Below, in pieces: positions 16,015 to 33,354 of a stretch of 64,000 nucleotides of DNA. The stretch lies in contig JABLXQ010000009.1 in NCBI GenBank assembly GCA_013178375.1, positions 82,347 to 146,346 of the forward strand, read 5' to 3'. A model generated the notes under the pieces. That model had not been told where the DNA came from and did no database searches. It saw nothing but the letters and a program-made list of their open reading frames with translations. Each line of letters opens with the position of its first letter. Positions within the stretch are counted from its first letter, which is position 1. The translations under genes were made by a program, and so were the position numbers. This stretch comes from Gammaproteobacteria bacterium (GTDB lineage Bacteria; Pseudomonadota; Gammaproteobacteria; Pseudomonadales; Ketobacteraceae).

Positions 16015-17556
16015 TTACGGCGCCAGCAGGGCCTGCAGCGCGCCGTAATCCACCTTGCCGTTGGCGTTCACCGGCAGGCGCTCCAGGGTCAGGATCTGGC
16101 GCGGCTGCATGTAGGCCGGCAGGGTGGCTGTCAATTGCGCAAGTACCTCTTCCTCCGGCAGCCAGGGCTGCACCACAAACCCGACCACACCGGTGAACAG
16201 GCCATCCGCACTGCGCGGCCAGGGCACCACGGCCGCCAGCTGGGTACCCGCCACCTGGCGCAGACAGTGTTCCACTTCCTGCAATTCCACCCGGTAGCCG
16301 TTGATCTTCACCTGGCGATCCAGCCGCCCGGCGTAGAGGATGCCGAAGTCCGGATGGACGGTGGCGCAATCACCAGTGCGGTACCAACGCGTTTCATCGC
16401 ACCCGGCAAACCACTGCTGCACGAACACGGCAGCGGTTTTTGCGGCGTCCGCCAGATAACCCGCACTGAGCTGCGTGCCCGCCAGCCAGAGCTCACCGCT
16501 TTCACCGGGCGCCGCCAGCGTCGCGTCCTCACGCACCACGCGGGCCTGCTGGCCGGGATAGGGCCAGCCGATAGGCACCACGCTCAGCTGGCGCCAGTCG
16601 TCGCGATCGCGCTGCAGCTCGAACGCGGTGATGGCAATGGTGGCCTCGGTGGGGCCGTACAGGTTGGCGACGCGGGCGTTGGGCGCCGCATCCAGCCAGG
16701 CCAGGGCGCTGGCGGTGGGCAGCGCCTCGCCACAGAAAAAAGAAAATTGCAGCGACGGCAGCACGCCCGGCCGCAACAATCCGCTCTGCTTGGCGATGCT
16801 GGCCATGGAGGGTACGGAAAACCAGACCTGGATCTGCTGCCGGCGCACGAACTGCAGCGGCATCAGCAGATCCTGGGCGGTGGGAATCACCAGACAGCCG
16901 CCCTGCTGCCAGCACACGAACAGATCATGTACCGACAGATCGAAGGTGAGATCAAACATCTGCGAGTAACGCAGGCCCGCCGGCAGGGGATACAGGGCGT
17001 GGAAATTCCGCAGGTAGGCGAGCAGGTTGCCCACGCTGACCGGGATGCCCTTGGGCACGCCGGTGGTGCCCGAGGTGAACAGCAGGTAGGCCGGCAGGTC
17101 GGCGGCGAATTGCGCCAGCGGCGGTGACTGATCCGATGGCTGAATCAGGCGGGCGTCCGGCACGGCCTCATCCAGCGCCAGCACCGACTGTAAATTCGCG
17201 TCTTCCGCCAGACGCTGGCACTGGTCCGCCGCTTCCCCGCCCGCCACCAGCACCCGCGCAGCGGACAGCGTCAACATGCGCTGGTTGCGGGCATCGGGAA
17301 ACGCCGGATTCAGCGGTACCCAGGTAAAGCCCTCGGCCGCACAGGCCAGGATCGCCACATACGCCACCAGGCTGCGGCTGGCCAGCACGGCGACGGGATC
17401 GCCGGTCTGCACGCCGCAGTCGCGCAATGCAACACGACAGCCGTTGACCCAGAGCCCCAGCTCGCGGTAAGAAAAAGTGCTGCCCTGCACACAGAGGGCG
17501 GGCGCATCCGGTGCGGAAAGGAAATTGCGGGCAAAGGTGTCGTGGTAAATATTCAT
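16015..17556 (-). CDS. Stand-alone NRPS-type adenylation domain (amino-acid activating).
   Basis: All A-domain core motifs are present: A3 LLFTSGTTGVPKG, A4 FDLTFDLS (Asp typical of alpha-amino substrates), A5 NLYGPTE, A7 YRTGD, A8 GRLDRQVKINGYRVELQEVE, A10 NANGKVD. There is no fused carrier or C domain. Confidence 0.8.
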   Translation of the reverse strand: MNIYHDTFARNFLSAPDAPALCVQGSTFSYRELGLWVNGCRVALRDCGVQTGDPVAVLASRSLVAYVAILACAAEGFTWVPLNPAFPDARNQRMLTLSAARVLVAGGEAADQCQRLAEDANLQSVLALDEAVPDARLIQPSDQSPPLAQFAADLPAYLLFTSGTTGVPKGIPVSVGNLLAYLRNFHALYPLPAGLRYSQMFDLTFDLSVHDLFVCWQQGGCLVIPTAQDLLMPLQFVRRQQIQVWFSVPSMASIAKQSGLLRPGVLPSLQFSFFCGEALPTASALAWLDAAPNARVANLYGPTEATIAITAFELQRDRDDWRQLSVVPIGWPYPGQQARVVREDATLAAPGESGELWLAGTQLSAGYLADAAKTAAVFVQQWFAGCDETRWYRTGDCATVHPDFGILYAGRLDRQVKINGYRVELQEVEHCLRQVAGTQLAAVVPWPRSADGLFTGVVGFVVQPWLPEEEVLAQLTATLPAYMQPRQILTLERLPVNANGKVDYGALQALLAP

Positions 17557-18589: not shown

Positions 18590-18633
18590 GTCACTGACAG
18601 CTGAGCCACTGCCTCCGCAAAAAAAGGCAGCGC

Positions 18634-19584
18634 TCAATTCTGTGTCAGCCGATCCACCCAGCCCTGCAGCAGATTCTGCAGCATGGCATCATCAGGACGC
18701 AGGAACGGATGCAGAGCAAGTGTCAGTGTCAGGCAACCATTGAACGTGGCCGCCGCCGCACCGATCGGTGCGGTGCGCGTGCAGGGTGGCGTAAAAAATA
18801 AATAGGGTGCCGCACTGGCATCCCAGTTCCACACACCCAGGTTCGAAAAAGTGCCCATCTGGCTGTTGTTGCTGCCGTAATAACGCTGCACCTGCTTACG
18901 CACCAGACCCGGTCCGAACCGGCAAATCGTGGTGAGAAAATCCCAGCTGCCCCAATGGTGACCGGCATCGAACAGGCCACGAATAATCCGGTGCACCTGC
19001 GCGGGGGAATCCGCATCTTCAAACACCACCGTCACGATGGAGGACTGGTTTTCCTCCACGCTGTCGGCCCGCACCGCGCCGCGCAGATTGATGGTATTGC
19101 CCCACGCCCGCGGCGTGACGGCAGCCGTAAGCTGCTGCGCCGCGACACCGCTCAATGCCCACAGCAGAAAGCTGTTCAGTGTCACCTGCTGGCGCTTGGA
19201 GTTGGCGAGAATCGCCTGGGTCTGCTCCACACTCAGCACCCGCCCCAGACGCAGCGTGGACAGCTTGGCAACGCGGCCATCCGGTGTCGGTGTCCACTGC
19301 CTCCACTGCACCGGCTGCGGTGTGCGGGTGCGGAATTTGCGCCAGGCATAGCGCACCCGCTGCAAGCGCCCGGGCACCACGCCCGCATAGCGCGGCACAT
19401 CGATGCTGACGCCCTGCTGTTTCAGCGCATGCAGGAACATGCCCATGCCATCCACTTCCTGATGCCGCAGATAATGCCAGTGCACCGGATCGTCGTTGCC
19501 ACGCACCGGCGCATAGGCGATGTCCGGATCGTCACCGAATTCCTCCAGAATATCGAACAGGCGGTGAATGTAGTGCGCGGGCAT
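18634..19584 (-). CDS. Hypothetical 316-aa protein, possibly a divergent acyltransferase.
   Basis: I recognise no family. The N-terminal HWHYLRHQEVDG loosely resembles the HHxxxDG acyl-transfer motif; this is weak. Confidence 0.35.
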   Translation of the reverse strand: MPAHYIHRLFDILEEFGDDPDIAYAPVRGNDDPVHWHYLRHQEVDGMGMFLHALKQQGVSIDVPRYAGVVPGRLQRVRYAWRKFRTRTPQPVQWRQWTPTPDGRVAKLSTLRLGRVLSVEQTQAILANSKRQQVTLNSFLLWALSGVAAQQLTAAVTPRAWGNTINLRGAVRADSVEENQSSIVTVVFEDADSPAQVHRIIRGLFDAGHHWGSWDFLTTICRFGPGLVRKQVQRYYGSNNSQMGTFSNLGVWNWDASAAPYLFFTPPCTRTAPIGAAAATFNGCLTLTLALHPFLRPDDAMLQNLLQGWVDRLTQN

Positions 19585-19610
19585 CGTTGCTCCTCAGGTG
19601 GCAGTGCGTT

Positions 19611-20456
19611 TCAGGCGGCAGAGCGTTCGGCCGGCAGCAACAGATTGCCATCAGCATAGTGGGCTTTCCACTTTTCCGTCAGCTCACGGGTGTCTTGCTG
19701 CCAGGGATGAAAATCACGGCGGTAGAAATCGAGAAAATCCCGGCGCAACACCGCACACAGACCACCACGCCCGAACAGGAAGCGCATTCCCTCGCGCCAC
19801 ATGCTGCCGCGCCAGAGCAGCCCGTCATGGCGCAGCATGTGCACCATCCGCGTGCTGATGCGGAAACTGATCAGCGCGATGGCAAAGGTCATCCACACCA
19901 CGCGGGTGCGATAGGCGCCGTCCAGCGTTGCATACACATCCCAGGCCACCGCCTTGTGTTCGATCTCTTCCACCGAATGCCACTGCCACAGCGCTTTGAC
20001 ATGGGGATCAGCCTGCGTCATGAATTCGCCCCGCAACAGCGCCGCCGACAGAATCGACGTGAGATGCTCGCAGGAAATCGTCACCGCCAGCGCCTGCATC
20101 GGCCGCAAAAAACGGCGCAGACGCCCGGTCATGCGGTTCATGGAGCGGTCCATTGCGTCGATGTCATAACCCCAGCGCTTCATCAGCTGGTTGTACTTGG
20201 CATGCTCGCGGGAATGAAAGGCTTCCTGGCCGATGAAAGCGCTGATCTGCTTCTGCAGCTCTGGATCAGCGATCTGCTCGCGCACCTGGCGCAGGGAAAA
20301 AATGAACAGGTCCTCGCCCACCGGCAAGGTGGTGGAGAACGCATCAAAAAAATGACTGATAAACGGTGAGTCCGCGTACCAGAAGCGTGGCGTATCAGCG
20401 GGAAAATCAATGCTGACCGGGCGCGGTTTTATTTCAAGATCCTGCGGTGTTTTCAT
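19611..20456 (-). CDS. Predicted metal-dependent hydrolase family protein (PF10118-like) with ExxH pairs.
   Basis: 281 aa. QEAFHSREHAKY and VEEIEHKAVAWD carry ExxH-type metal ligands. Its start overlaps the desaturase stop by 23 nt. Confidence 0.5.
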   Translation of the reverse strand: MKTPQDLEIKPRPVSIDFPADTPRFWYADSPFISHFFDAFSTTLPVGEDLFIFSLRQVREQIADPELQKQISAFIGQEAFHSREHAKYNQLMKRWGYDIDAMDRSMNRMTGRLRRFLRPMQALAVTISCEHLTSILSAALLRGEFMTQADPHVKALWQWHSVEEIEHKAVAWDVYATLDGAYRTRVVWMTFAIALISFRISTRMVHMLRHDGLLWRGSMWREGMRFLFGRGGLCAVLRRDFLDFYRRDFHPWQQDTRELTEKWKAHYADGNLLLPAERSAA

Positions 20457-21399
20457 GGGGCGCTTCTCCGCCGCTGATCCCTGCGGCCCGGGTTTTTGTT
20501 ATGGCACCGGCGCTCTTTAGTTTGCGCTGGCGGTCTTCCTGCGACACGGTATGAATATCCCACACCCAACCCAGCTGCTCCGCCACTTTCAGCACGCCGT
20601 AGCCGTAATCGATTTGCCACCAAGCGTGGCTGTTTTTGCCGGACTTGGGAAACGCATGATGATTGTTATGCCAGGCACCGCCCAGCGTGACCAGAGCAAA
20701 ACCGGCATTGTTGCGACTGTTGTCCTTGCTGTTGTAAGGCTGCGTGCCCGCCAGATGACACAGGGAATTGATCAGGAAAGTGCCCTGCTGGGTGGCGAAC
20801 AGACGGATCACACCGCCCAGCAGAAAACCACGCAGCGCACCTTCCCAACTCATATCCCACAGGCCGCTCAGTGCAGCAGGCAACGCCAGCCCCAGCAGCA
20901 CCCAGCCATAATAGATTCGCGTTTTCGACAGCCGGGTAATGATAGGATCGCGATACAGCCACAACGCAAACTTGTCCGGCAGTGGCGGCCGGTACGACCA
21001 TTTCCACAACACCTGCGCGTGCAGAAAACCTTTCAGGCGACCCAGCACGCCTTCGCCACTGTGCAGTGGTGTGTGCGTATCCTGTGGCTGGTCGCTAAAG
21101 CGGTGGTGATGAATGTGATTGGTGGCCCAGGCGATCACCGAGCCCTGTCCGCCCATCGACGCAAACACCACCAGCAATCCTTTCAGCCAGGGCCGCACCT
21201 GAAACGCCTGGTGGGAAAAATAGCGGTGATAACCCAGCTCGATACCCACCACCGTGACGAACCACATCAGCAACAGACCCACGAGATCCACCGCCTGCAC
21301 GCCGGTACGCGCGAGCACGACGATGCCCAGCAGCGCGCCCAGAAACGGCACCACATCCAGCAGAATGAAATGCCGTTTTTGCATGGCGGAGATATTCAT
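20434..21399 (-). CDS. Membrane acyl-lipid/acyl-CoA desaturase (fatty acid desaturase family).
   Basis: Three His boxes, HRYFSH, HHHRF and HNNHHAF, plus 4 TM helices. This is the stearoyl-CoA/DesA-type architecture. Confidence 0.85.
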   Translation of the reverse strand: MNISAMQKRHFILLDVVPFLGALLGIVVLARTGVQAVDLVGLLLMWFVTVVGIELGYHRYFSHQAFQVRPWLKGLLVVFASMGGQGSVIAWATNHIHHHRFSDQPQDTHTPLHSGEGVLGRLKGFLHAQVLWKWSYRPPLPDKFALWLYRDPIITRLSKTRIYYGWVLLGLALPAALSGLWDMSWEGALRGFLLGGVIRLFATQQGTFLINSLCHLAGTQPYNSKDNSRNNAGFALVTLGGAWHNNHHAFPKSGKNSHAWWQIDYGYGVLKVAEQLGWVWDIHTVSQEDRQRKLKSAGAITKTRAAGISGGEAPHENTAGS

Positions 21400-21427
21400 G
21401 GCGTTTCCTCCAGCAGCGACGCTGCGA

Positions 21428-21655
21428 TCAGGCCAGCTTGGCCGTCACTACATCCAGCAACTGGGACACACTGACGACGCCATCCAGATCTTCCTGCACC
21501 AGGGTGATATCAAGCTCTTCCTGCAGCTCCACCACGGTTTCGATCAGCACGAAGGAATCCGCCACCAGATCGGTGAGGCGTGCATTTTCCGTTACCCGTG
21601 CCGCGTCGATCTTCAGCAGTTTTGCCAGCAGGGCGGTCAGTTCATTGCGTTGCAT
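21428..21655 (-). CDS. Acyl carrier protein (carrier 2).
   Basis: 75 aa, acidic. LTDLVADSFVLIETVVELQEE carries the DSxxxxE phosphopantetheine-attachment motif. Confidence 0.8.
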   Translation of the reverse strand: MQRNELTALLAKLLKIDAARVTENARLTDLVADSFVLIETVVELQEELDITLVQEDLDGVVSVSQLLDVVTAKLA

Positions 21656-21685
21656 TTTTCGTTACTCCGATATAAAAAAATTTGC

Positions 21686-21805: not shown

Positions 21806-21816
21806 ACAGCAAATAT

Positions 21817-22380
21817 TCAAAACGCGTAATTCTGCTTGTCGAGAATATGGCCTATCCGTTCACCGTGTTCGGCGATCATGCGGCCATAGACTTCCTCATC
21901 CGCCTTGCGGAAGCGCTCGCAGGTATTCTTCACCCGCTCGGCGCCAAATTTCTCTTCCATCTGCTTGAGTGCATCGCCCACCCACTGGATGTGCCACTTC
22001 TCATCTTCCATGATGGTGTTGAGCGCATGCTGCACCGCCGGATGAATGTCGCGCACACGGGAATGACGGGCGTACTGGGAAATCACACGGCGTTCGAACA
22101 CCATGGTCAGCGCCAGAATCTCCATAATGTTGGTGGGCATGCCCGCCGCTTCCAGGTAATGATCCTGGTAGGCGAACGTCATCTTGATCGGGTCCAGATT
22201 CATGTCGCCCAGGGCCTTGGTCCAGTACCAGGCGTGCTGGCTTTCGTCGGCAAAATGCTTGGTGAGGTCGAACTGGATCGGCCCCGCGGGCAACACCCGC
22301 GCCAGACGGCTGAAAAACTGCGCGCCGGAAATTTCGGAATTGCGGTAAAAGCTGACGATCCAGCGATCGTTGTCATTCAT
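21817..22380 (-). CDS. Ferritin-like superfamily protein (putative small di-iron oxygenase subunit).
   Basis: 187 aa. Two ExxH motifs, ADESQHAWYW and MEDEKWHIQW, spaced about 90 aa apart as in four-helix-bundle di-iron proteins. Confidence 0.5.
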   Translation of the reverse strand: MNDNDRWIVSFYRNSEISGAQFFSRLARVLPAGPIQFDLTKHFADESQHAWYWTKALGDMNLDPIKMTFAYQDHYLEAAGMPTNIMEILALTMVFERRVISQYARHSRVRDIHPAVQHALNTIMEDEKWHIQWVGDALKQMEEKFGAERVKNTCERFRKADEEVYGRMIAEHGERIGHILDKQNYAF

Positions 22381-22391
22381 GGTCCATCTCC

Positions 22392-22970
22392 TTATCCGTT
22401 GTGCAGGGCGAATGCCGCTGACAACACTCCTCCGGGAATTTCGATACTGATGTAACGGAAATGCTGCACCCGGCCACCGGCGCGCACACGGGCGGTGCCG
22501 CTGCGACGGTTCGGGTAATCTAGTTCGTACGCGGTAACCCAGCGCTGCTGACCACCCAGATCAGCCTTGAACAGCGCTTCTTTCACCGTCCAGATCCGCA
22601 GCAGGTCACGGCCATTCGCCGCACCCAGTTGCGCATCCTCGCGCCGGGTCAGCATCAACCGGCGATGACGTTCATCCAGCGGACGCCAGGGTTCGAAATC
22701 CAGCCCGACGCCACGATAGGGCGATTGCCGCAGTGCCAGCGCAAAAGTGCGATCGCCTGCATGCGTTAGCGAATGGTCGGCCTGGGCACTGCGCAGCGGG
22801 CCTTCCGGTGCACGCCCCAGCCACTGTCGAGCCGCGCGCAGCAAACGCGCACTGCCGCCGCTGGTCGCAGCTGCGTGCGCCGACCACAACCGCGCATCCA
22901 CATCCGCGAAGTGCGTCAAGCGTTGTTCCAGCGCACCCAGCCGTTGCAGCATCAGACTTCTCTGCCCCAC
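22392..22970 (-). CDS. 4'-phosphopantetheinyl transferase (Sfp/EntD type).
   Basis: The PPTase motifs GVGLDFE (G-x-D) and WTVKEALFKA (W-x-KEA-x-K) are present. Its start overlaps the R-domain gene stop by 19 nt. Confidence 0.85.
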   Translation of the reverse strand: MGQRSLMLQRLGALEQRLTHFADVDARLWSAHAAATSGGSARLLRAARQWLGRAPEGPLRSAQADHSLTHAGDRTFALALRQSPYRGVGLDFEPWRPLDERHRRLMLTRREDAQLGAANGRDLLRIWTVKEALFKADLGGQQRWVTAYELDYPNRRSGTARVRAGGRVQHFRYISIEIPGGVLSAAFALHNG

Positions 22971-24049
22971 TTGGTATTCACCAGGTACTGCACCGTGTTG
23001 CGCACCAGCGTTTCCGGATCGGGCGCACGATAGCGGTCGATGGACCCGCGCAATTGATCATTATGAAACTGCTTGGTGACAAACATCTGCGGCGCAAACG
23101 GGCGAATGCTTTCCACCGCCTGGGACACCACCTGTCCCGACAGCCCGCTCAACCCTTCCGCCAGCAGCTCAAACGATTCGAAATCCGTAAACAGCGGCCG
23201 CAGGATGCGACGCTTGCGAAAACCTTCGTCGTTGCCGAACACTTCAAAACAGATATCCACCAGTCGTCCGATGGGCAGCGATTCCTCGCGGCGATGGCAA
23301 ACGTGGAAGAACTGGCGCTCCGGCACCGCCTTCACACTCAGCTCGGCAATCGCATCCGCCACGAATTCGCCGGTCACCAGATAGATCGGCGTTTCCTCGG
23401 TACCGGGCAGCATGGAAATCAATCCATAAAACAGCAGCCGCATGGTGTTGTGGAATACGTTGTACTGGGTGACGTCGCCGGCGTCGTTGTGGGCCAGCAC
23501 AGTGGCCACGCGGTAGATGTGCCAGGGCAGATCGCCGTATTCATTCTGCAGAATCGCTTCCGCCTCGCACTTGGAGCGCTCGTAGTGATTGGCAAACGGG
23601 CCTGCTGCGGGCAACGGCTGCTCCTTGATATCGCCTTGCACCAAACCAGCAGCATAGGCCGTGCTCACATAACAGAAGCGCCGCAACTGCGGACACTGGC
23701 GCGCAAACGCCAGCATCTTGCGGGTGCCGTCCCGGTTCACGGCATTGGCTACGTCTTCCTTCACATTGAAGGCGGTGACAGCAGCGGCGTGCACGATGCG
23801 ATCCACCTGCTGCGGATTCACCGTGGCGAACGGCGCATCGCCGTACAGATTGCCGGTATGAATTTCAATGCGGGCACGCTGTGCCGCATACTTCTGTTCC
23901 AGCTGCGCCTGTTTGCGTGCAAACTCTTCCGCGTCGTTCGACCGCACCCACAGCAGCAATTGCGCATCGGTGTTGGCCAGCAGGCGATCGCAGACCATGC
24001 CGCCGATATAGCCGTCGGCGCCGGTTACCAGAATCCGTTCTGACGTCAT
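22952..24049 (-). CDS. Thioester-reductase (R) domain protein, SDR/NAD-epimerase fold.
   Basis: MTSERILVTGADGYIGGMV is a Rossmann GxxGxxG. YERSKCEAE is the catalytic YxxxK. The length and layout match terminal NRPS/PKS reductase domains and fatty acyl-CoA reductases. The ATG at 24049 lies 1 nt after the carrier-protein stop. Confidence 0.75.
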   Translation of the reverse strand: MTSERILVTGADGYIGGMVCDRLLANTDAQLLLWVRSNDAEEFARKQAQLEQKYAAQRARIEIHTGNLYGDAPFATVNPQQVDRIVHAAAVTAFNVKEDVANAVNRDGTRKMLAFARQCPQLRRFCYVSTAYAAGLVQGDIKEQPLPAAGPFANHYERSKCEAEAILQNEYGDLPWHIYRVATVLAHNDAGDVTQYNVFHNTMRLLFYGLISMLPGTEETPIYLVTGEFVADAIAELSVKAVPERQFFHVCHRREESLPIGRLVDICFEVFGNDEGFRKRRILRPLFTDFESFELLAEGLSGLSGQVVSQAVESIRPFAPQMFVTKQFHNDQLRGSIDRYRAPDPETLVRNTVQYLVNTKWGREV

Positions 24050-24050
24050 T

Positions 24051-24299
24051 TCACACCGCCTCGGCAAAAAATGCGGCGCAGATGGTATTCACGGAATGGA
24101 AATTTTCCGGTTGCACCTGATCGATATCCAGCGGACGTTCCTGCAAATGTTCCAGAAACAGAATCAGATCCATGATCTGGATCGAGGTCAGAATTTTCTG
24201 TTCCAGCAACGCGGTGTCATCCTGCAGCGCAGCGGCATTCACCTGCGGGTTTTTGGCCAGAATCCAGTCTCGAATCCGGGTTTTTACGGTGCTACTCAT
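24051..24299 (-). CDS. Carrier protein (PCP/ACP-like; carrier 1).
   Basis: 82 aa with a 4-helix carrier layout. The attachment Ser is in KILTSIQIMDLILFLE. Its ATG overlaps the oxygenase stop (ATGA). Confidence 0.65.
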   Translation of the reverse strand: MSSTVKTRIRDWILAKNPQVNAAALQDDTALLEQKILTSIQIMDLILFLEHLQERPLDIDQVQPENFHSVNTICAAFFAEAV

Positions 24300-25159
24300 A
24301 CAGCAGGCGCCTCAGTCATCATGCGGTTTTCCAGGAAATAATCGATGCAGCTTTTTGACACAGCCTGGCGGTGGGCACGACACACTGGCGCATCCCACGC
24401 TTTCTGATACAGCGCATAGCCATTGTCCAAACCTGCGTCTGCGTACACCGCCGGGTTGTAATACTCACGCCAGGTGGACACCATGTAATTGGCAAGATAC
24501 GACTGCACCCCCGCCACCGTCTCCGGTTTCCAGGTGGGCGCCCATTGCTCGAACAGTTTTTTCGACAGCTCGCGGCCAAACGCCAGATGACGGGATTCGT
24601 CGTTGTGGTGATATTGATTGATATGCTGCGCCAGTGGATGCAGTCGCTCGTCCTTGCCCATCGCCAGATTGTAGTGATCCACCAGTTCCTCGAAGATCAC
24701 CACCTTGGCGAAAAACAGAAAATCCGCCTCGCCTTTTTCATACTTGCGCGGAAAACTCAGCTTCTTGTCCGGATACACCTTTTTGCCGTAACGATGGCAG
24801 AAGGTACCGAACACTGTCATGTGCTTGTTTTCTTCATCAAGAAAATGGTGCAGGTATTCCGACAGCTCCGGCGACCAGTCCATGTAATACAGATGCTCGG
24901 CCAGTCCGCCGATCAGCGCTTTTTCACCGTGAATATTCAGGCCGAAAAAATTAACCGTTTCCCAGAATGCCAGTTTTTTCTGCTGCGCCTCGCTTAAAGC
25001 AGCAAATTCTTCCAGGCCATAAATGGAAATGAGTTCCGGGGAAAAATGCCAGTCATCCAGGCTCAATGCATCCGGCCACTGGAATTCCTCATAAGGGCTG
25101 TTATAGCGTTTGACGGAAGCGTCACTCAGCTTGCGGGCGATTTTGGCGAGGCGTTCCAT
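24296..25159 (-). CDS. AurF-like di-iron N-oxygenase family protein (PvfB/HamC-like arylamine/amine oxygenase).
   Basis: 287 aa with the ExxH ligand sets FLDEENKHMTVF and HNDESRHLAFG and an extra carboxylate in VIFEELVDHY. Soluble, with a W/F-rich N-terminus as in the AurF/CmlI family. Family assignment is from motif memory, not a search. Confidence 0.6.
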   Translation of the reverse strand: MERLAKIARKLSDASVKRYNSPYEEFQWPDALSLDDWHFSPELISIYGLEEFAALSEAQQKKLAFWETVNFFGLNIHGEKALIGGLAEHLYYMDWSPELSEYLHHFLDEENKHMTVFGTFCHRYGKKVYPDKKLSFPRKYEKGEADFLFFAKVVIFEELVDHYNLAMGKDERLHPLAQHINQYHHNDESRHLAFGRELSKKLFEQWAPTWKPETVAGVQSYLANYMVSTWREYYNPAVYADAGLDNGYALYQKAWDAPVCRAHRQAVSKSCIDYFLENRMMTEAPAV

Positions 25160-26136
25160 CAGTCAGCTACCTTTTCCAGCAGAATACAGGACCAGTTCAA
25201 ACCGAATCCTGCCATCGGCAGCAGGATCTTGTCGCCGGGCTGAATCTGGCCCTCGGACTGCACGGTTTTCAGATTGATGATGTTGTCGCCGGAAATGCAG
25301 TGGCCGGCAGTACCGATGGTGGGCATCAAAATGCGTTGGAAATCGAAGCGCAGCACGCTGGACAAAATGCGCCACGCCTTGCGGTTGGTGTTCTGGGGCA
25401 CGATCCACTGCACATCCGCCGGGGTGATGCCGGCCTTGCGGCACAGCTCGGTGATCATGCGGTGGCTGTAGCTGAAATAGAAGCCAGCGGTTTCCTCGTC
25501 ATTGGCCGTGGCCATGGCGCCGTTGGTGATGTGGTGGGCGCCCAGGAAGCGGTAACCCCGCGCCTCACGGCTGACGATACAGGCGGCACCGCCGTCGGAG
25601 ATCAGGTTGTAGGCCTGCTCATAGGCAGCGCCTTGGGGAAAACGGTCGGCAGTGATGCAGAGGATATGCTGCATGTCCGGTTCCGCCTGCAGCATTGCGC
25701 TGGCCACGCGGATCGAACCGAGCATGCCGGTGCAGGCCTGCTGGTTGATGCCCATGACATAGGCGTTGTCCATGCCAAAATCCGCCTGTAGGCGGCTGGC
25801 GGGAAAATCCATCAGGTGTTTGACGTCGCGGCTGCTCTCAAACTGGTGCACATCGCCGTTGTTGCCGTTCAGGGGCAGGCAGGTGACATACAGGATCAGA
25901 TCAATTTTGGGCAGCAGATCCCGGGTTTCCGGGTAAGTGGTGAGCATGTCATCCAGAGCACCCCGCGCCAGATCGTAGGCGCTTTCGCCCTCGGGGCAGA
26001 CATGGTGGGTACCAAAACCGGCATCCTCCAGCGCACTGGCAGCCGAGAACAGGCCGTTGGCCGCCTCGGCTTCCGCCAGGGTACGACGCTGGCTGCCCAG
26101 CCGGAAAGCGGGGAAATTCAGATAGATGTCCTTCAT
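25159..26136 (-). CDS. FabH-like (KAS III family) enzyme: condensing enzyme or ACP-dependent acyltransferase.
   Basis: Thiolase-fold. The active-site Cys is in GINQQACTGMLGS. The region expected to hold the FabH His/Asn reads IVPQNTNRKAW / TAGHCISGDN instead of PHQAN / GNTSAAS. Its stop and the downstream ATG share one nucleotide (TGATG). Confidence 0.7.
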   Translation of the reverse strand: MKDIYLNFPAFRLGSQRRTLAEAEAANGLFSAASALEDAGFGTHHVCPEGESAYDLARGALDDMLTTYPETRDLLPKIDLILYVTCLPLNGNNGDVHQFESSRDVKHLMDFPASRLQADFGMDNAYVMGINQQACTGMLGSIRVASAMLQAEPDMQHILCITADRFPQGAAYEQAYNLISDGGAACIVSREARGYRFLGAHHITNGAMATANDEETAGFYFSYSHRMITELCRKAGITPADVQWIVPQNTNRKAWRILSSVLRFDFQRILMPTIGTAGHCISGDNIINLKTVQSEGQIQPGDKILLPMAGFGLNWSCILLEKVAD

Positions 26137-26525
26137 GTACTACGTCCTTTATACGTCAGAGACCGCTTTTGCTCATCGCCGATCAAGCACTTGAAACGAA
26201 CAAAATCGAACGCGATTGGTTAATAATAGTGCAATTCCCAACATGTTGTTCAAATATTAGCCATATCTGGGAGTGGCAAGTGCAGATGTAGCCAGCGGTG
26301 AAACGCCCGGCAATGTTCGTCATTTCCCGACCGGCAGTCAATTAACGGTAAAAAAACGCTACAAATCCCAGCCTAAACAAAACATTGTGGCAGCATCATG
26401 AAATCCGCTCCCGTTACAATGGCTAACAAATCACTCAAGAATATGCACAAGTCCCGCCACGCAAGAATGGATATCCTTAGACACTCAACTTTCATTGATT
26501 GACCATTTTTTGGGCGGATAACGAC

Positions 26526-28256
26526 ATGGATCGTTCAATTTTTAGTATCAAAAAGGAAAGTCCTGTTGCGGATTCCCTGAAATCATTTTCGTTTTCGAAC
26601 CTTTTGCAGGCCGCCGCAGTTGAATATGGCCGCTTTCCCGCCTTTTCTGACCGCAGCGGGGGCCTCTGGCGCAGCCTGGACTTTCGCAATTGCGCCCGCC
26701 GCAGCAATGCCATCGCCTACTGGCTGGAGCAGAAACGGCTCAATACACGCTGCATGATCTTTGCCGAATCCCGTCTGGAGTGGCCGCTGGCCTTCTTCGG
26801 CATCATGAATGCCGGCGCCGTGGCCATTCCGGTGGACGCCAAGTCCACCGCCCAGGAACTGGCCACCTTCATCCGCCACACCCAGCCGGCCGTGCTGATG
26901 CTGTCGCCCAAGCTTCAGGGCGTGGCGGAGCAGGCGGCGGAACTGGCACAGTGGCAGGGTCCGCTGGTGCTGCTGGATCTGGACAACCAGCGCGACAGCC
27001 GCGCCATCGGCACCTTCGAAACCGCCCCCGCCAGTTTTCGCCCCCATTCGCTGAGCGCCAATTCCACCGCCGTGATCGCGTTCACTTCGGCCACGTCAGG
27101 TCAGCCCAAGGCGGTGGAGACAAGCGTGCGCAACCTGTTCCACCAGATGCAGTCGCTGCGCGACCTGTTCGGTGTGAAGCCCGGCGATGCACTGCTGTCG
27201 ATCCTGCCGCTGAGCCATCTGCTGGAATTGTCCTGCGGCTTTCTGGCGGCGTTCGCCAGCGGCGCCCACATCAATTACCTGAATTCGATCCTGCCCAACG
27301 AAATCAAGGATGCGCTGAAGCAGCGGGGCATCACCCACATGATCGTGGTGCCGCTGTTGATGGACATGATTCGCAAGGGCATCGAGCGCAACTTCACCAC
27401 CAAACTCGGCACGCGGGGCGCAACCGTGCTGCAGGGCATGCAGCTGGCATCCAGCCTGGCGCCGACCAATCCGATGCGGCGTTTTCTGAACCGTTTCATC
27501 CTCAGCGAGCTGGGGCCGAAACTGAACACACTGATCGTGGGCGGCGCCACACTCGACCCGTCCACACTCACCTTTTTCAACAACCTGGGCATCAGTTCCT
27601 GGCAAGGCTATGGCCTCACCGAAACCAGCCCGGTGGCGGCGGTGAATTCACCCGGACAGATCAAGCGTGGCTCGGTGGGTCGCGCCATGCCGGGCTGCAG
27701 CATCCGCATCGAGGCGGCGCCGGGGGAAAAAATCGGCGAGATCCTGATTAAAGGCCCCTGCATCATGAACGGCTATTTCAATGACCGCGCCTACACCCGC
27801 GAGGCAATCGACCAGCAGGACTGGTTCCACACCGGCGATCTGGGCTATGTCTGCGACGACGGTTACCTGTTCATCACCGGCCGCAAGAAAAACCTGATCG
27901 TGCTCGATGGCGGCAAGAAGGTGTATCCGGAAGAGGTGGAGAAAGCGCTGTCCGCCAGCCTGCTGTTCCAGGAGCTGTGCGTAACCGGCCTGAAGGTACC
28001 GCATCCATCCATGCCGGGCAAACTGACCGAACAGGTGAGTGCGGTGATCGTGCCCCAGGCCCAGCTGCGGGAATCGAAAAATCTGGCGGATCTGCAAACG
28101 TTGTGCGAACAGGAAGTGCAGCGCCTGTGTCGCGAGCTGTCGTCTTACAAGCGGCCGGTGCAGGTGATCGTACAACTGGAAGAACTGCCCAAAACCCGCA
28201 CCGGCAAGGTGAAAGCGCCGCTGGTGCAGCAACAACTGTCGGCTTCGCATTCGTAA
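26526..28256 (+). CDS. Fatty acyl-AMP ligase / long-chain acyl-CoA synthetase (ANL superfamily).
   Basis: AFTSATSGQPKAV (A3), YGLTETS (A5), WFHTGDLG (A7), GRKKNLIVLDGGKKVYPEEVE (A8) and LPKTRTGKV (A10). The ATG at 26526 lies 27 nt inside the listed TTG-start ORF 26499..28256. It is divergent from the KASIII operon. Confidence 0.8.
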   Translation: MDRSIFSIKKESPVADSLKSFSFSNLLQAAAVEYGRFPAFSDRSGGLWRSLDFRNCARRSNAIAYWLEQKRLNTRCMIFAESRLEWPLAFFGIMNAGAVAIPVDAKSTAQELATFIRHTQPAVLMLSPKLQGVAEQAAELAQWQGPLVLLDLDNQRDSRAIGTFETAPASFRPHSLSANSTAVIAFTSATSGQPKAVETSVRNLFHQMQSLRDLFGVKPGDALLSILPLSHLLELSCGFLAAFASGAHINYLNSILPNEIKDALKQRGITHMIVVPLLMDMIRKGIERNFTTKLGTRGATVLQGMQLASSLAPTNPMRRFLNRFILSELGPKLNTLIVGGATLDPSTLTFFNNLGISSWQGYGLTETSPVAAVNSPGQIKRGSVGRAMPGCSIRIEAAPGEKIGEILIKGPCIMNGYFNDRAYTREAIDQQDWFHTGDLGYVCDDGYLFITGRKKNLIVLDGGKKVYPEEVEKALSASLLFQELCVTGLKVPHPSMPGKLTEQVSAVIVPQAQLRESKNLADLQTLCEQEVQRLCRELSSYKRPVQVIVQLEELPKTRTGKVKAPLVQQQLSASHS

Positions 28257-28300
28257 TTTCGCATTCGTAACGGTTAATCATCATAGGGAAGGAGTACTGC

Positions 28301-31300
28301 GTGGAATTGTCTGCGGTCATATTATTGACCTTTAACTTTTTATATATCGGCGCCACACCGGCGTTTTTCTTCCGCAAGGACGGCTCGTTCAACCTGATGT
28401 GGTTCATCACCGGGTTGCCGCTGTTTCTGTGGCCGGTTTCCCTGTTCGGTGTGTACTGGGGCTATCTGGAGCCGAACCTGGCCCTGGACAGCGAAATGTA
28501 CGCCAGCATGAAAACCCTGGGCGTGCTGCTCAGCTGCGGCTCCATCGCGCTGATCTCGCTGACGATGGGCACGCACCGCATTCCGCTGGCCCTGTGGCAT
28601 CAGGACAACGACGCGCCGCGCACCATCGTCACCTGGGGCGCTTACCGTTTTATCCGGCATCCGTTTTACACGTCATTCATCATCGCCCACACCGCCGCGC
28701 TGATGATCGCGCCGCACTGGTTCCAGTTGCTGCTGCTGTCCTACCAGATCCTGATCCTGAATCACACCGCCGCGCGTGAGGAACGCAATCTGAGCCAGTC
28801 CAGCTTCGGCGCGGAATACCGTGATTTCATCACCCGCACCGGCCGCTTCTTTCCCAAACCCCGAGCTGCGGCCTTCATGGAAACCTATCTGGTGTGGGTC
28901 ACCCAGTATCGTCATCTGGTGCTGGGCCTGCTGGCCGGCTTCACCATTTTCTTCAGTGTGTTTCTCGTCAACATCGGCATCAACGCCACGCCGTATTTCA
29001 TTTCGCCGGACCATCCGGTGCGCGTCACCGAGTCTGAAATCAAAAGCATTTTCACCAACACGGAAGAACAGGCCTTCGTGGCGCTGGTGGATGAAAAGAA
29101 CGGCATTTTCACCACCGCCAATCTGGAACTGGTGCAAAAACTGACGCAGCAGCTGGAACGGATTTCATTTGCCAGCGACAGCGACCTGGAACGCTTGCGC
29201 AGCATCGCGGGCGACGACGCCGAAGCACAGGCCATCGTGGCCAGGGTTGCGGAAAACGGCATCGGGCTGGACGACGTGGAGCCGCTGCGTCAACTCGCAC
29301 AGCACGGCAAAACCGCGAAGACCCTGACCGCCCAGGAACTGAAAAAAATCGACGACATCATCGTGCGTGCGCGGCCCGTGAAGCGCGTGCGCAGCCTGTT
29401 CACCGTGGAAGACATCCGGGTGGACGGCGACGATCTGGCCATCGATTCCCTGATCGAACGGATTCCGTCGGACAGTGCCGGACTGCAGGCGCTGCAACAG
29501 CACATCATGGCCAATCCGCTGCTGGTGGGCGTGATCGTGTCGCAGGATGGCAAGGCCACCAACATGCAGGTGGAACTGAATATCGCCGAAGACGACTCGC
29601 CCAGCATGCAGGCGGTGTACGCCGCCATTGAAAAACTGCTGGCGGAAGCCGGCGGCGATGCGCAGCTGCATTTTTCCGGTCCGCCGATGGTGACTGCCCA
29701 GATCGCGCAGATCATCCAGCAGGACAACATGCTGTTTTTCCCGCTGGTGTCCACGGTGATCTGTCTGATCCTGTTCATCAGCTTCCGCCGTCTGCAAGCG
29801 GTGGTGCTGACCATGACGGTGTGCACGCTGTCCACGCTCTGGACCATGGGTTTCATGGCCATGTTCGGCATCGACGTGAATATCGTCACCGCCAGCCTGC
29901 CGGTGTTCCTGATGACTATTGCGGTGGCCGATTCCATTCATTACCTGACAGAATATTACGGCCTGCTCAACACCCATGACCGGGTGGAAGCGGCGAAGGT
30001 GGCACTGCGCCATCTGATGAAACCGATGTTCATGACCAGTCTCACCGATTTCTTCGGCTTCATCGCGCTGGCGTACACCAGCCTGGTGTTCGTGCGCGAG
30101 TTCGGTATTTTCATCGCCGTCGGTGCGGTATTCGCCTTCATCATTTCCGTCACCCTGCTGCCCGCCATCCTGCCGCTGCTGAAACAGCCGGCCAACGCCA
30201 GCGAGAACAAGCAGAGCGCGCTGATGAATCCCGTCAACCGTGGTTTCGGCAAACTGTACCTGACATTGGGACGCGCACCGCTGCTGGTGCTGGCGGCCAC
30301 GGCTGCCGTCGCTGCGTTCACCACCTATCTGTCGAGCGAAGTGCGCGTGGACAACCACAACATCGTGCAGTTCAGCGAGGACACCCGCATCCGTCAGGAC
30401 GACGAAATCCTGAATCGTCACTTCGGCGGCACCGTGCCGATCAACGTCTGGTTCAGCGCGGCCGATGAACGCCGTTTCACCCAGCCCGATGTGATCGTCG
30501 CCATGGACCAGATCGCGCAGCGGTTTGAACAGCACGAGATCATCGGTTACGTGGGCTCGCCCAGCAATCTGGTGAAGCGCATTCACCAGCTGCTCAACGA
30601 CACCGACTACGCCCTGCCGGCGGATATGTCGCCGGAGCTGATTGCGCAATATTTCCTGCTCTATGAAAACGGTAACGGTCAGGAAATCCGCGACTCGCTG
30701 GATGAGAATTACCAGAACGCGCGACTGGTGGCACTGTCCCATACCGACCAGTCCTCGAAAGTACGCGCCGTGCTGCAGGATGTGGAGGCATACGCCAAAA
30801 CCGTGCTGCCCGCCGACGTGAAAATGCAGGTTGCCGGCTTCGGCCAGATCATGGTGACCAGCACGGATGAAATCGTGAATGGCCAGATCAGCAGCCTGAC
30901 CATTGCCACGCTGCTGATCGCCGGCGTGATGATCCTGCTGTTCCGCTCCTGGTGGACCGGCGTGCTCAGCGTCATTCCGCTGGCGCTGACTATCCTGATC
31001 AACTTCGGCACCATGAACGGGCTGGGGCTGGATATCGACATCGGCACCGCGCTGATCACCGGCATCGTGTTCGGTATCGGCATCGACTATGCGATCCATC
31101 TGCTGTCGTATATCAAGCGCGCCACCGGCGAAGGCAAGCCCCTGGCCCAGGCCATCGAAGCCGCCATCGAGCATGCCTCCTGGCCGATCATGGTGAACTC
31201 GGTGTGTCTGGCGCTGGGCTTCTGTGTGCTGGTGGCGTCGCACTACGGCTCCACCGGACGCCTGGGCCTGCTGATCGCCGGCACCATGATCGTGTGCGCG

Positions 31301-31366
31301 TTGCTGACGCTGATCGTGTTGCCGGTACTGGTGAAACTGTTCAAACCCAAGGCACTGCAAAACTGA
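28301..31366 (+). CDS. Fusion protein: N-terminal ICMT/PEMT-family membrane methyltransferase plus C-terminal MMPL/RND exporter.
   Basis: GGAAGGAG RBS, then GTG at 28301. Residues 1-185 carry 4-5 TM with RFIRHPFYTSF and EERNLSQSSFGAEYRDFITRTGRFFP (ICMT/PEMT signatures RHPxY and EE..L..FG..Y..Y...R.xP). Residues about 190-1021 form two 6-TM bundles with large periplasmic loops, homologous in layout to the 6990..9377 exporter. Confidence 0.75.
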   Translation: MELSAVILLTFNFLYIGATPAFFFRKDGSFNLMWFITGLPLFLWPVSLFGVYWGYLEPNLALDSEMYASMKTLGVLLSCGSIALISLTMGTHRIPLALWHQDNDAPRTIVTWGAYRFIRHPFYTSFIIAHTAALMIAPHWFQLLLLSYQILILNHTAAREERNLSQSSFGAEYRDFITRTGRFFPKPRAAAFMETYLVWVTQYRHLVLGLLAGFTIFFSVFLVNIGINATPYFISPDHPVRVTESEIKSIFTNTEEQAFVALVDEKNGIFTTANLELVQKLTQQLERISFASDSDLERLRSIAGDDAEAQAIVARVAENGIGLDDVEPLRQLAQHGKTAKTLTAQELKKIDDIIVRARPVKRVRSLFTVEDIRVDGDDLAIDSLIERIPSDSAGLQALQQHIMANPLLVGVIVSQDGKATNMQVELNIAEDDSPSMQAVYAAIEKLLAEAGGDAQLHFSGPPMVTAQIAQIIQQDNMLFFPLVSTVICLILFISFRRLQAVVLTMTVCTLSTLWTMGFMAMFGIDVNIVTASLPVFLMTIAVADSIHYLTEYYGLLNTHDRVEAAKVALRHLMKPMFMTSLTDFFGFIALAYTSLVFVREFGIFIAVGAVFAFIISVTLLPAILPLLKQPANASENKQSALMNPVNRGFGKLYLTLGRAPLLVLAATAAVAAFTTYLSSEVRVDNHNIVQFSEDTRIRQDDEILNRHFGGTVPINVWFSAADERRFTQPDVIVAMDQIAQRFEQHEIIGYVGSPSNLVKRIHQLLNDTDYALPADMSPELIAQYFLLYENGNGQEIRDSLDENYQNARLVALSHTDQSSKVRAVLQDVEAYAKTVLPADVKMQVAGFGQIMVTSTDEIVNGQISSLTIATLLIAGVMILLFRSWWTGVLSVIPLALTILINFGTMNGLGLDIDIGTALITGIVFGIGIDYAIHLLSYIKRATGEGKPLAQAIEAAIEHASWPIMVNSVCLALGFCVLVASHYGSTGRLGLLIAGTMIVCALLTLIVLPVLVKLFKPKALQN

Positions 31367-32815: not shown

Positions 32816-33354
32816 CCGCCATCCCCAGCTTGCTGCTGATCGACGACGATTCCCTGTTCCTGCAGACACTGGGCCGCTCCCTGCAACGGCGCGGCACCGA
32901 AGTGGCCACCGCCCGCGACAGTGCCAGTGCCCTGCACACGCTGCAGCACAAACGCTTCGACCTGATCCTGCTGGATCTGAACCTGGACGGCGAGAGCGGC
33001 CTGAAACTGCTGCAGCAGATCCTGACGCTCCAGCCGGACGCCCGGGTAGTCATGCTCACCGCCTACGCCAGCGTCGCCACCGCCGTGGACGCCATCAAGC
33101 GCGGCGCCGAAAACTACCTGTGCAAACCGGTCACCGCCACCGACATCCTGGCCCTGCTGCAGGACGACGCCGACAACACAACCGACAGCAACGCCCTGCA
33201 GGAAAACCCGCTGTCGGTAGACCGGCTGGAATGGGAACACCTGCAACGGGTGCTGCTGGAACACGACGGCAACATCTCCGCCACTGCCCGCGCCCTCAAC
33301 ATGCACCGCCGCACCCTGCAGCGCAAACTGCAGAAACGGCCGGTGAGCAAATAG
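32812..33354 (+). CDS. RegA/ActR/RoxR-like response regulator (receiver plus Fis-type HTH).
   Basis: LLLIDDDSLF ... DLILLDLNL is a receiver domain. The C-terminal GNISATARALNMHRRTLQRKLQK is a Fis-family HTH. It overlaps the kinase gene (ATGA). Confidence 0.8.
   Translation: MTAIPSLLLIDDDSLFLQTLGRSLQRRGTEVATARDSASALHTLQHKRFDLILLDLNLDGESGLKLLQQILTLQPDARVVMLTAYASVATAVDAIKRGAENYLCKPVTATDILALLQDDADNTTDSNALQENPLSVDRLEWEHLQRVLLEHDGNISATARALNMHRRTLQRKLQKRPVSK

Follow-up and report, generated by a model that had tools for sequence, protein, structure and literature searches.

An ICMT-family methyltransferase domain fused to an MMPL/RND transporter at the edge of a putative lipid biosynthetic cluster in a Ketobacter-related lineage

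RhlM of Paraburkholderia is an ICMT-family rhamnolipid carboxyl methyltransferase, encoded in the biosynthetic operon, which methylates a lipid carboxylate (PMC11069360). His122 and Glu162 have been modelled as its contacts with S-adenosylmethionine (SAM), and SAM-contacting His and Glu residues have also been named for Ma-ICMT and Tc-ICMT (PMC11069360). Before RhlM (2024), no bacterial substrate was known for the ICMT-like family. On the side of export, MmpL7 binds its lipid synthase PpsE (PMC1238737), and the solved structures of MmpL4/5 include, according to the Foldseek match descriptions, bound AcpM; coupling of synthesis to export therefore has precedent. Pvf/Ham-type pathways and the lipothrenin (lit) cluster lead to N-oxygenated lipo-amino compounds (PMC11659414, PMC10616846).

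The gene presented here unites an ICMT-family methyltransferase and an MMPL/RND transporter in one polypeptide. It is a single listed ORF of 1021 aa with a GTG start, located at positions 28301..31366 (forward strand) of the window, by which the whole analysed stretch of 64,000 nucleotides is meant. The preferred reading, to which a probability of roughly 70% is assigned, is that of a genuine, selectively kept fusion, which arose once in a Ketobacter-related lineage and joins two genes of one widespread lipid cluster, the protein presumably serving methylation and then export.

The cluster and its split relatives

The fusion gene is situated at the edge of the biosynthetic cluster, where the original prediction had placed it, directly 3' of an acyl-AMP/acyl-CoA ligase of the fatty-acyl-AMP-ligase-like type (26499..28256, forward strand; Pfam AMP-binding, E 3e-64). 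The divergent operon on the reverse strand begins with a KAS III (FabH)-like thiolase-fold enzyme (25159..26136; Pfam ACP_syn_III and ACP_syn_III_C), followed by an AurF-family di-iron oxygenase/oxidase (24296..25159; Pfam PF11583, E 2e-36), a probable divergent carrier protein of 82 aa (24051..24299; weak NCBIfam ACP matches, E 1.5e-4), a thioester-reductase-type NAD(P)-dependent reductase (22952..24067; NAD_binding_4, E 4e-31; TIGR01746, E 1e-27), a 4'-phosphopantetheinyl transferase (22392..22970; Pfam ACPS, E 3e-8), a ferritin/rubrerythrin-like core protein of 187 aa (21817..22380; Pfam Rubrerythrin, E 3e-5) and an acyl carrier protein (21428..21655; Pfam PP-binding, E 7e-8, and NCBIfam ACP models). 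The same strand carries accessory genes for a fatty-acid desaturase (20434-21399), a PF10118 protein (19611-20456) and a 316-aa protein without assigned function (18634-19584), as well as a stand-alone, DltA-like amino-acid adenylation domain (16015..17556), which exceeds the TIGR01733 cutoff of 317.4 with 342.7 bits. The accessory genes (18634..21399) belong to a part of the fused clade only, being present in L004 and L007 and not in L003 and L009. An OleABCD-type olefin/beta-lactone pathway was considered and dropped, as the reductase matches OleD with E 4e-4 only, against the TIGR01746 value given above.

The core of the orthologous cluster, which crosses phyla, comprises the KAS III-like and AurF-like enzymes, carrier proteins, an amino-acid loader, the thioester reductase, the ferritin-like protein and the fatty-acyl-AMP ligase. 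Orthologues in other phyla share 52-56% identity in the case of the KAS III-like enzyme and 49-58% in the case of the ferritin-like protein, and the 82-aa carrier protein is kept in all clusters. A gene for an aaRS-like amino acid-[ACP] ligase, present in 26 of the 29 long loci elsewhere, was not found in the 64-kb window; the DltA-like adenylation domain stands in for this ligase of other lineages. Searches of solved structures with the AurF-like and ferritin-like proteins returned no informative match, and the AurF-like protein has no close structure.

Outside the fused clade, the methyltransferase of the orthologous cluster is encoded by a separate gene of ~190 aa, as in L002, L085-L087 and most of the 80 metagenomic loci. 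At L002, a 194-aa ICMT gene (45% identity, E 5e-50) is accompanied by a separate RND gene (36% identity), and in Thermomonospora the MMPL, the ICMT and the ligase are three adjoining genes; a Streptomyces with P0214/P0225 is likewise a cultivable host of the split form. Other core cluster genes occur at 79 of the 84 loci with an ICMT family member, and in 53 of these 84 the ligase directly adjoins the ICMT gene. Since the methyltransferase and the exporter are separate neighbouring genes elsewhere, the fusion indicates that both activities belong to the same pathway, as had been suggested from the single sequence; the genomic evidence comes from unfused relatives, whose orthologous cluster includes the ICMT as a gene of its own. 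An MMPL of any sort is present in only 9 of the 29 long loci, and RND export is therefore not obligatory for the pathway. The cluster-linked MMPLs are of three different types or positions, and an MMPL was recruited to the cluster at least three times. No second domain was found in the longer relatives of the N-terminal domain (P0089, P0108 and others; long frames L112, L111 and L137), which were rejected as further fusions and represent stop-free high-GC DNA or unrelated extensions.

Split genes are thus the rule, and the fused form accounts for one of the 84 ICMT-family loci and 6 of the 391 RND relatives that the genome collection yielded. The fusion is rare, recent and limited to Ketobacter-related Gammaproteobacteria. 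Its occurrence in one young clade, amid prevailing split systems that mostly lack any MMPL, is what would be expected of a fusion without functional effect, in which the stop codon between adjacent genes was lost and the domains act as in split systems, with neither channelling nor a fixed order. Simple read-through would also fit the linker: in alignment A1 with the unfused P0009 and P0010, taken together with the alignment to the ICMT structure 4a2n, the ICMT fold gives way to RND similarity after just 2-3 residues (P187-R188-A189; 28859..28867, forward strand). The pLDDT over the junction is 82-90 in the full-length AlphaFold model, and a cytoplasmic C-terminus of the ICMT domain is the topology needed to enter RND helix 1 directly. 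However, so small a linker forces the domains into contact within the membrane. Moreover, the fusion is kept in relatives down to 63% identity, and the dN/dS values among fused homologues (0.06-0.24 in the N-terminal domain, 0.05-0.29 in the RND part) indicate purifying selection on both domains. An MMPL lying directly beside a separate ICMT gene in nine further loci also suggests a functional link between the two activities. A fusion without effect is unlikely in the light of this evidence, although it keeps some weight beside the selectively kept fusion that we prefer.

Transporter and methyltransferase domains

The transporter part (28868..31366 with the stop codon included, forward strand; residues ~190-1021) is of the MMPL/HAE3-type of RND proteins, and the full 12-TM MMPL exporter that had been predicted to follow in frame was borne out. 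Pfam MMPL (PF03176) matches with 132.3 bits against a cutoff of 20.5, in two stretches that correspond to internally repeated halves. The AlphaFold model (pLDDT 89, pTM 0.81) contains 12 TM helices, with periplasmic domains at ~235-460 and ~680-845, after helices 1 and 7. HAE3 is the top-scoring RND subfamily (TIGR00921, E 7e-62, 209.5 bits), and the fusion protein, which misses the curated cutoff of 351.9, lies outside the curated HAE3 set. The HpnN cutoffs are missed as well (TIGR03480, 109.3 versus 751.9 bits; NF052374, 56.1 versus 1100 bits). In the Foldseek search, MmpL4/MmpL5 are closest (target-normalised TM-score 0.81), followed by MmpL3, HpnN and NPC1L1. The residues D544 and H547 in helix 4 and D929, Y930 and H933 in helix 10 do not vary among the relatives, whether fused or unfused, and by analogy with MmpL3 they are presumably the proton-relay residues.

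The sequence reveals neither the direction of transport nor its substrate, and the order of the two activities could be reversed or the transporter could have another role, such as the supply of lipid to the methyltransferase, the uptake or recycling of an outer lipid, or self-resistance. Such roles would find a parallel in some related clusters (L100, L128), where a single polypeptide combines the ligase with an MFS transporter and an acyltransferase, an arrangement that we take to resemble the LplT/Aas system of lipid import and reacylation. However, characterised relatives of the RND branch, MmpL3/4/5 and HpnN, are outward exporters of lipids or siderophores, and the active site of the methyltransferase is predicted to face the cytoplasm, where synthesis occurs. 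A role other than export after methylation is considered improbable.

Residues 1-186 (28301..28858, forward strand) constitute a complete five-helix membrane methyltransferase domain of the ICMT family. The AlphaFold model of this domain (pLDDT 87, pTM 0.85) shows five long helices (3-23, 32-52, 65-91, 121-136 and 140-165), in agreement with the four to five TM segments of the original prediction, and both signatures named there, RHPFY (residues 119-123) and EERNLSQSSFGAEYRDFITRTGRFFP (160-185), are present. The N-terminus is predicted to be periplasmic and the C-terminus, together with the cofactor-binding loop, cytoplasmic; the positive-inside charge pattern of the domain fits a cytoplasmic C-terminus. 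The assignment as ICMT or PEMT had to be narrowed. ICMT (PF04140) scores 26.4 bits with residues 1-200 alone and 23.8 with the whole protein, at a cutoff of 24, whereas PEMT (PF04191) misses its cutoff of 25 with both (22.9 and 18.3 bits). A precomputed PF04140 match is present in the relatives P0004, P0006 and P0007. The NCBIfam isoprenylcysteine methyltransferase model NF040696 matches the fusion protein with E 4.7e-14 and 52.7 bits, short of the equivalog cutoff of 160. The domain is a member of the ICMT family but, with the curated cutoffs missed, is orthologous neither to PEMT nor to protein isoprenylcysteine methyltransferase. With the NF040696 cutoff far off and the Pfam score marginal in the whole protein, the substrate class is therefore not transferable. 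Moreover, the thioester reductase of the cluster would remove the carboxylate at that end, and thus carboxyl methylation is not assured.

The marginal Pfam score might also indicate that the domain is no longer a methyltransferase and now provides the transporter with a module for lipid binding or anchoring, or works with a different cofactor, as do steroid 5-alpha-reductases, which have the same fold and take ranks 4 and 6 in the fold search. The invariant loop 93-102, which is without counterpart in known ICMTs and poorly modelled, points in the same direction. However, the best matches in both fold and sequence are ICMT and not reductases. The structure 4a2n ranks first in Foldseek (TM-score 0.66-0.67 over 194 columns), the phmmer alignment with it (E 2e-6) reaches its natural C-terminus GRLFPK, and the NCBIfam matches of the domain are methyltransferases only. 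The His of RHPxY and the Glu of EE...FG..Y align with their 4a2n counterparts, and these cofactor motifs are invariant, as in stand-alone relatives (H120, P121, Y123, E160, E161, G170 and Y173 across 66 aligned family members). Among fused homologues, the N-terminal domain is also more conserved than the transporter. The loss of methyltransferase function is, if anything, even more improbable than a different role of the transporter.

Continuity of the reading frame

Read directly from the DNA, the frame is unbroken through the suspected junction (28800-28980). The ribosome-binding site is strong, with the Shine-Dalgarno sequence GGAAGGAG (28286..28293, forward strand), likewise read directly, 6 nt 5' of the GTG, and this start codon is common to L005-L010. 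Four complete, independent fused loci have ORFs of 1020-1027 aa without interruption and with the identical GTG start, and three further partial contigs carry the identical junction, which confirms the claim of one ORF with no frameshift near 28850..28900. The fused examples come in every case from metagenome-assembled genomes. An assembly or sequencing artefact masking a frameshift between two genes can be dismissed for practical purposes because of the dN/dS values and the conservation in independent metagenome assemblies, with one continuous frame in L005-L010 and L088 from separate studies at 63-97% identity, a junction conserved in amino acids among fused homologues, and eight 90%-identity clusters of the fusion protein with 43 member sequences in total. 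Met193 was rejected as a separate internal start of the transporter, since it is not kept in fused homologues. A scan for promoters and terminators around the fusion gene gave a number of sites not above chance expectation.

Proposed function and comparison with known systems

The most likely function of the fusion protein is the methylation of the cluster lipid, followed by its proton-driven export. The amino-acid loader, the carriers, the fatty-acyl-AMP ligase (FAAL), the KAS III-like, AurF-like and ferritin-like proteins and the thioester reductase would jointly build an amphiphilic lipid, which would partition into the inner membrane and there be methylated with SAM by the ICMT domain at the cytoplasmic face. 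The proton-driven MMPL/HAE3 part would then pull the methylated product from the membrane and pass it outward. The fusion sets a 1:1 ratio and the closeness of methyltransferase and exporter, and methylation, thereby placed at the membrane, is therefore probably the last step on the cytoplasmic side before export. It is from this arrangement that we infer the order of methylation and then translocation, which the original prediction had proposed. A more far-reaching version can be put forward tentatively, as a possibility with the odds against it: a single-chain methylate-and-export machine in which the lipid is handed over laterally in the bilayer and methylation licenses export, in a cluster that makes an undescribed class of methylated, probably N-oxygenated lipid derived from amino acids, with a distribution from Actinobacteria to Cyanobacteria and Proteobacteria.

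Gene fusions of such a kind point to proteins that work together, and this one ties an orphan bacterial family of ICMT-like methyltransferases to lipid export. A conserved cross-phylum cluster without a described product is a target for the discovery of natural products and envelope lipids. If direct transfer of the lipid proves true, the fusion would provide a compact model of how RND exporters receive substrates from biosynthetic enzymes; delivery of substrates to RND lipid exporters is also a question for the mycobacterial MmpL drug targets.

In the literature on AurF/ICMT, MMPL-methyltransferase fusions, related clusters and Ketobacter, neither the fusion nor the cluster was found described. 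Like the Pvf, Ham and lit systems, the present cluster combines a carrier-bound amino acid with an AurF-like di-iron oxygenase, with reductive release or a FAAL plus an ACP, and with a KAS III-like enzyme. However, those systems lack the ICMT-like methyltransferase, the MMPL and the ferritin-like protein and differ in gene content and order. The lit cluster, with KAS III, FAAL, ACP, an AurF-like protein and proteins of 85 and 311 aa, is likened here by description only; having no ICMT, MMPL or reductase, it was rejected as a counterpart and serves as a lead only.

RhlM and the fusion protein are both bacterial ICMT-family enzymes encoded in lipid biosynthesis loci, with an amphiphilic membrane product that is presumed in the present case. 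As likened through the described residues, H120 and E160/E161 of the fusion correspond to the SAM-contacting His122 and Glu162 of RhlM. RhlM, in contrast, is a stand-alone enzyme of a rhamnolipid operon, acts on a carboxylate acceptor and is not fused to a transporter. The ICMT of Methanosarcina acetivorans (4a2n) and eukaryotic ICMT (5v7p/5vg9) share with the N-terminal domain the five-helix core and the C-terminal cofactor motifs, but the identity is only ~20%, and the invariant loop HRIPLALWHQxNDAP is particular to the family of the N-terminal domain. To our knowledge, prenylated CaaX proteins are absent from bacteria; therefore the substrate of the domain must differ from that of ICMT proper.

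MmpL3, MmpL4/5, MmpL7 and HpnN represent, by fold, the same RND subtype as the transporter part: 12 helices are combined with two periplasmic domains, and helices 4 and 10 bear charged relay residues. Their genes lie in clusters for lipids or siderophores. The identity to the mycobacterial MmpL proteins and HpnN is only 13-16%, and the host here is Gram-negative. Moreover, the coupling in the MmpL systems is non-covalent, whereas here the tailoring enzyme resides in the same polypeptide as the transporter. The novelty claimed for this combination holds for the ICMT-RND fusion itself, but the general concept of an MMPL protein bearing a tailoring enzyme had already been annotated: P0045 and its relatives of ~1290 aa are named by NCBI 'trifunctional MMPL family transporter/lysophospholipid acyltransferase/class I SAM-dependent methyltransferase'. 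We know of no characterised member of this trifunctional type. P0045 and the fusion protein are alike in the covalent joining of an MMPL to lipid-tailoring enzymes that include a methyltransferase. In P0045, however, soluble enzymes follow the MMPL (53-~800) at the C-terminal side, as an acyltransferase (886-1004) and a class I methyltransferase (1100-1264), whereas the methyltransferase of the fusion protein is an integral-membrane domain of unrelated fold, placed N-terminally.

The fusion gene and its two parts

The fusion gene occupies 28301..31366 (+) as a single 1021-aa frame with a GTG start in the ORF list, and a strong Shine-Dalgarno sequence (GGAAGGAG) is present 6 nt 5' of the GTG. 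The junction DNA (28800-28980) was read as a continuous frame free of stops. Moreover, uninterrupted ORFs of 1020-1027 aa start from the same GTG in four complete homologous loci; two other loci are truncated by contig ends. The one ORF put forward in the original prediction is thus confirmed, with no frameshift or stop at the junction, and the fusion is real and not an artefact.

The Pfam ICMT model (cutoff 24 bits) gave a marginal match to the first 170 residues, scoring 23.8 bits on the whole protein and 26.4 bits on residues 1-200 alone, and the score of the PEMT model was below its cutoff. The NCBIfam isoprenylcysteine methyltransferase and HAE3 RND subfamily models matched with E-values of 4.7e-14 and 7e-62, respectively, both under the curated cutoffs, and are therefore family-level assignments, not statements of orthology. 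In a PDB sequence search with the N-domain, the Methanosarcina ICMT 4a2n was matched (E 2e-6) in an alignment that extends from the RHPxY motif to the natural C-terminus of 4a2n, the GRLFPK of which corresponds to GRFFPK at residues 181-186 of the fusion protein. Structure prediction from an alignment of 66 family members gave a confident N-domain model (pLDDT 87, pTM 0.85), with five long helices (3-23, 32-52, 65-91, 121-136 and 140-165) and a short C-terminal helix. In the Foldseek search with this model 4a2n ranked first, with a TM-score of 0.66-0.67 over the full length, and the next matches were eukaryotic ICMT and steroid 5-alpha-reductases, enzymes of the same fold. As modelled, the first part of the protein thus has the whole of an ICMT-type fold; of the ICMT/PEMT signatures originally predicted, the ICMT assignment holds at the family level and the PEMT one does not. 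His120 and Glu160/Glu161 are invariant among the 66 family members, and they correspond to the His and Glu described as SAM contacts in RhlM, Ma-ICMT and Tc-ICMT (PMC11069360).

The loop HRIPLALWHQxNDAP (HRIPLALWHQDNDAP; residues 92-106, window 28574-28618) is invariant throughout the N-domain family. It is the sole poorly modelled stretch in both the N-domain and the full-length models. None of the solved ICMTs compared has an equivalent, and the loop might act as a lid or substrate gate. Judging from hydropathy and Lys/Arg distribution, the C-terminus of the domain and loops 25-32 and 91-121 are cytoplasmic and the N-terminus lies outside. RND helix 1 enters the membrane from the cytoplasmic side, so this predicted topology is precisely that required for the chain to continue into it.

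The Pfam MMPL model matched the remainder of the protein in two stretches (132 bits). In the full-length model (pLDDT 89, pTM 0.81), an amphipathic helix (189-202) precedes helix 1 (204-224). A periplasmic domain of mixed alpha/beta structure separates helix 1 from helices 2-7, and a further periplasmic domain stands between helix 7 and helices 8-12. The model thus supports the predicted fusion to a full 12-TM MMPL exporter, and the residues after the N-domain are modelled as a complete RND transporter. Its top structural matches were the mycobacterial MmpL4/MmpL5 (TM-score 0.81, target-normalised), then MmpL3, HpnN and NPC1L1; by sequence, HpnN is the nearest solved protein to the transporter part, with a weak match. 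Residues invariant across fused and unfused relatives include Asp544 and His547 (helix 4) and Asp929, Tyr930 and His933 (helix 10); they fit an intact proton relay, which we presume them to form by analogy with MmpL3. The alignment of the unfused RND relatives P0009 and P0010 starts at about residue 189, which indicates that the linker between the ICMT and RND folds is just 2-3 residues long. A second, unfused HAE3/MMPL-type RND paralogue (795-aa ORF, 22-23% identical) lies about 20 kb upstream, at 6990-9377 (+).

Distribution of fused and split forms

In a collection of 5.8 billion proteins, the fused protein forms eight clusters (P0001-P0008; 64-97% identity, 43 member sequences). A scan of 185,579 species, with one genome each, found the fusion in 6 of 391 RND relatives, and a seventh example (L088, N-domain 68% identity) came from a metagenome scan. 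Every fused example is metagenome-assembled. The six from the genome scan belong to gammaproteobacterial assemblies: Ketobacter sp. (Ketobacteraceae, Pseudomonadales), unclassified Pseudomonadales, Gammaproteobacteria or Pseudomonadota, and one short Dongiaceae-binned contig. Pairwise dN/dS against the window ranged from 0.06 to 0.24 in the N-domain and from 0.05 to 0.29 in the transporter, values that point to selection on both parts, the methyltransferase being constrained at least as much as the pump.

Searched alone against 1.84 billion representative proteins, the N-domain retrieved 3305 relatives, of which 51 had E <= 1e-30. The best 150 were all of 473 aa or less, and nearly all of about 190 aa. 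Stand-alone homologues with 50-58% identity, annotated as ICMT-family proteins and no more, occur in Streptomyces, Thermomonospora, Planktothrix, Gammaproteobacteria, Acidobacteriota and others. Among 84 surveyed loci encoding a family member, one is fused and 79 have one or more further core cluster genes. The split form sought in the original prediction exists: in L002, for instance, a 194-aa ICMT gene (45% identity, E 5e-50) lies two genes upstream of an HAE3-type transporter orthologous to that of the window, which indicates that methyltransferase and transporter belong to one cluster. P0009, also from Ketobacter, is the closest of the unfused transporters (48%), and it sits outside any such cluster.

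A cross-phylum cluster and its version in the window

The genomic context of the stand-alone ICMT-like genes is strikingly constant. Besides the ICMT-like protein itself, the conserved genes encode an acyl-AMP ligase, an aaRS-like "amino acid-[ACP] ligase" (NF005479), a KAS III-like enzyme, a reductase of the thioester-reductase type, an AurF-like di-iron protein and a ferritin-like protein some 190 aa long. A small carrier-like protein (about 85 aa) and an ACP, in some cases accompanied by a phosphopantetheinyl transferase, complete the set. The cluster occurs in the window (16015-28256 with 28301-31366) and in L002, L085-L087 and L090-L167, and its proteins share 42-58% identity when the window is compared with loci of Actinobacteria, Cyanobacteria and other Proteobacteria. 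In the 29 surveyed loci of at least 9 kb, KAS III, AurF and reductase genes occur together in 24, the aaRS-like gene in 26 and an MMPL gene in nine.

At least three arrangements tie MMPL transporters to the cluster. In nine loci (Thermomonospora L085, 7706-10570; L101, L106, L108, L122, L147, L152, L163 and L167), the gene directly upstream of a separate ICMT gene encodes an actinobacterial-type MMPL; this MMPL has no similarity to the window RND detectable by tblastn and appears to be an independent recruitment to the same position. An HAE3-type MMPL follows the ACP in L133 and L150, and in L002 the orthologue of the window transporter (36% identity) follows the ligase. In two metagenomic versions of the cluster, L100 (6582-9992) and L128 (6498-10001), the ligase beside the ICMT gene is itself an MFS transporter-acyltransferase-AMP-binding fusion of about 1150 aa with an LplT/Aas-like architecture. 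This cluster family thus contains a second fusion of transporter and enzyme, independent of the first.

The fused clade departs from the general pattern in its amino-acid loader and its accessory genes. The aaRS-like ligase is absent throughout the 64-kb window; a stand-alone NRPS-type, DltA-like amino-acid adenylation domain is encoded at 16015-17556 (-) (TIGR01733, 342.7 bits, cutoff 317.4) and is kept in L003 and L009. It looks like a non-orthologous replacement of the ligase, which strengthens the case for amino acid loading onto a carrier protein. A second carrier is probably represented by an 82-aa window protein, which matches ACP models weakly and carries Ser where one would be expected. 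Genes for a fatty-acid desaturase and a PF10118 protein, together with an unknown gene, have been gained in a sub-group made up of the window, L004 and L007. In L007 the desaturase (2409-3298) is split in two frames at 2975, which may be a frameshift or a pseudogene. Directly 3' of the fusion gene, at 31493-33354 (+), lies a RegB/RegA-like pair (histidine kinase and Fis-type HTH response regulator), kept in position in L004 and L007 (64-74% identity); L003 and L009 carry a different hybrid kinase instead. The whole window (1-64000) has no tRNA genes or Rfam matches at the gathering threshold, and its G+C falls from about 0.60 to 0.51 across the last 4 kb.

Proposed route and known systems

The domain folds, topology, conserved cofactor and relay residues, genomic linkage and selection on both parts are directly supported. 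From the enzyme families, the ligase and the adenylation domain (or aaRS-like ligase) would charge the two carrier proteins with a fatty acid and an amino acid, a KAS III-like enzyme would join them, di-iron proteins would oxidise the joined intermediate, and the reductase would release it as a membrane-partitioning amphiphile. By analogy with RhlM, which methylates rhamnolipids (PMC11069360), the ICMT domain most likely methylates this lipid at the cytoplasmic face, after which the RND part would take it out of the inner membrane. Since the cluster contains a thioester reductase, methylation need not take place on a carboxylate; the methyl group may instead go to a hydroxylamine, a hydroxamate or another nucleophile.

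In the literature outside subscription journals, no description of an ICMT-RND fusion was found, in agreement with the original view that the combination was not known as characterised, and no publication on the cross-phylum cluster, which is perhaps a more valuable lead than the fusion itself. The assembly logic proposed for the cluster is, by analogy, like that of the Pvf/Ham systems and bears a looser likeness to the lipothrenin pathway (PMC11659414, PMC10616846). Non-covalent coupling of lipid synthesis to MmpL export is represented by MmpL7, which binds PpsE (PMC1238737), and by the AcpM bound in MmpL4/5 structures, according to the structure-match descriptions. The publicly annotated P0045 combines an MMPL transporter, an acyltransferase and a soluble methyltransferase of class I in one chain, a domain order that was confirmed. 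Together with the L100 and L128 fusions, it indicates that transporter-enzyme fusions are already a known theme in lipid pathways; what is new here is an N-terminal integral-membrane methyltransferase as the fusion partner, and the cluster that houses it.
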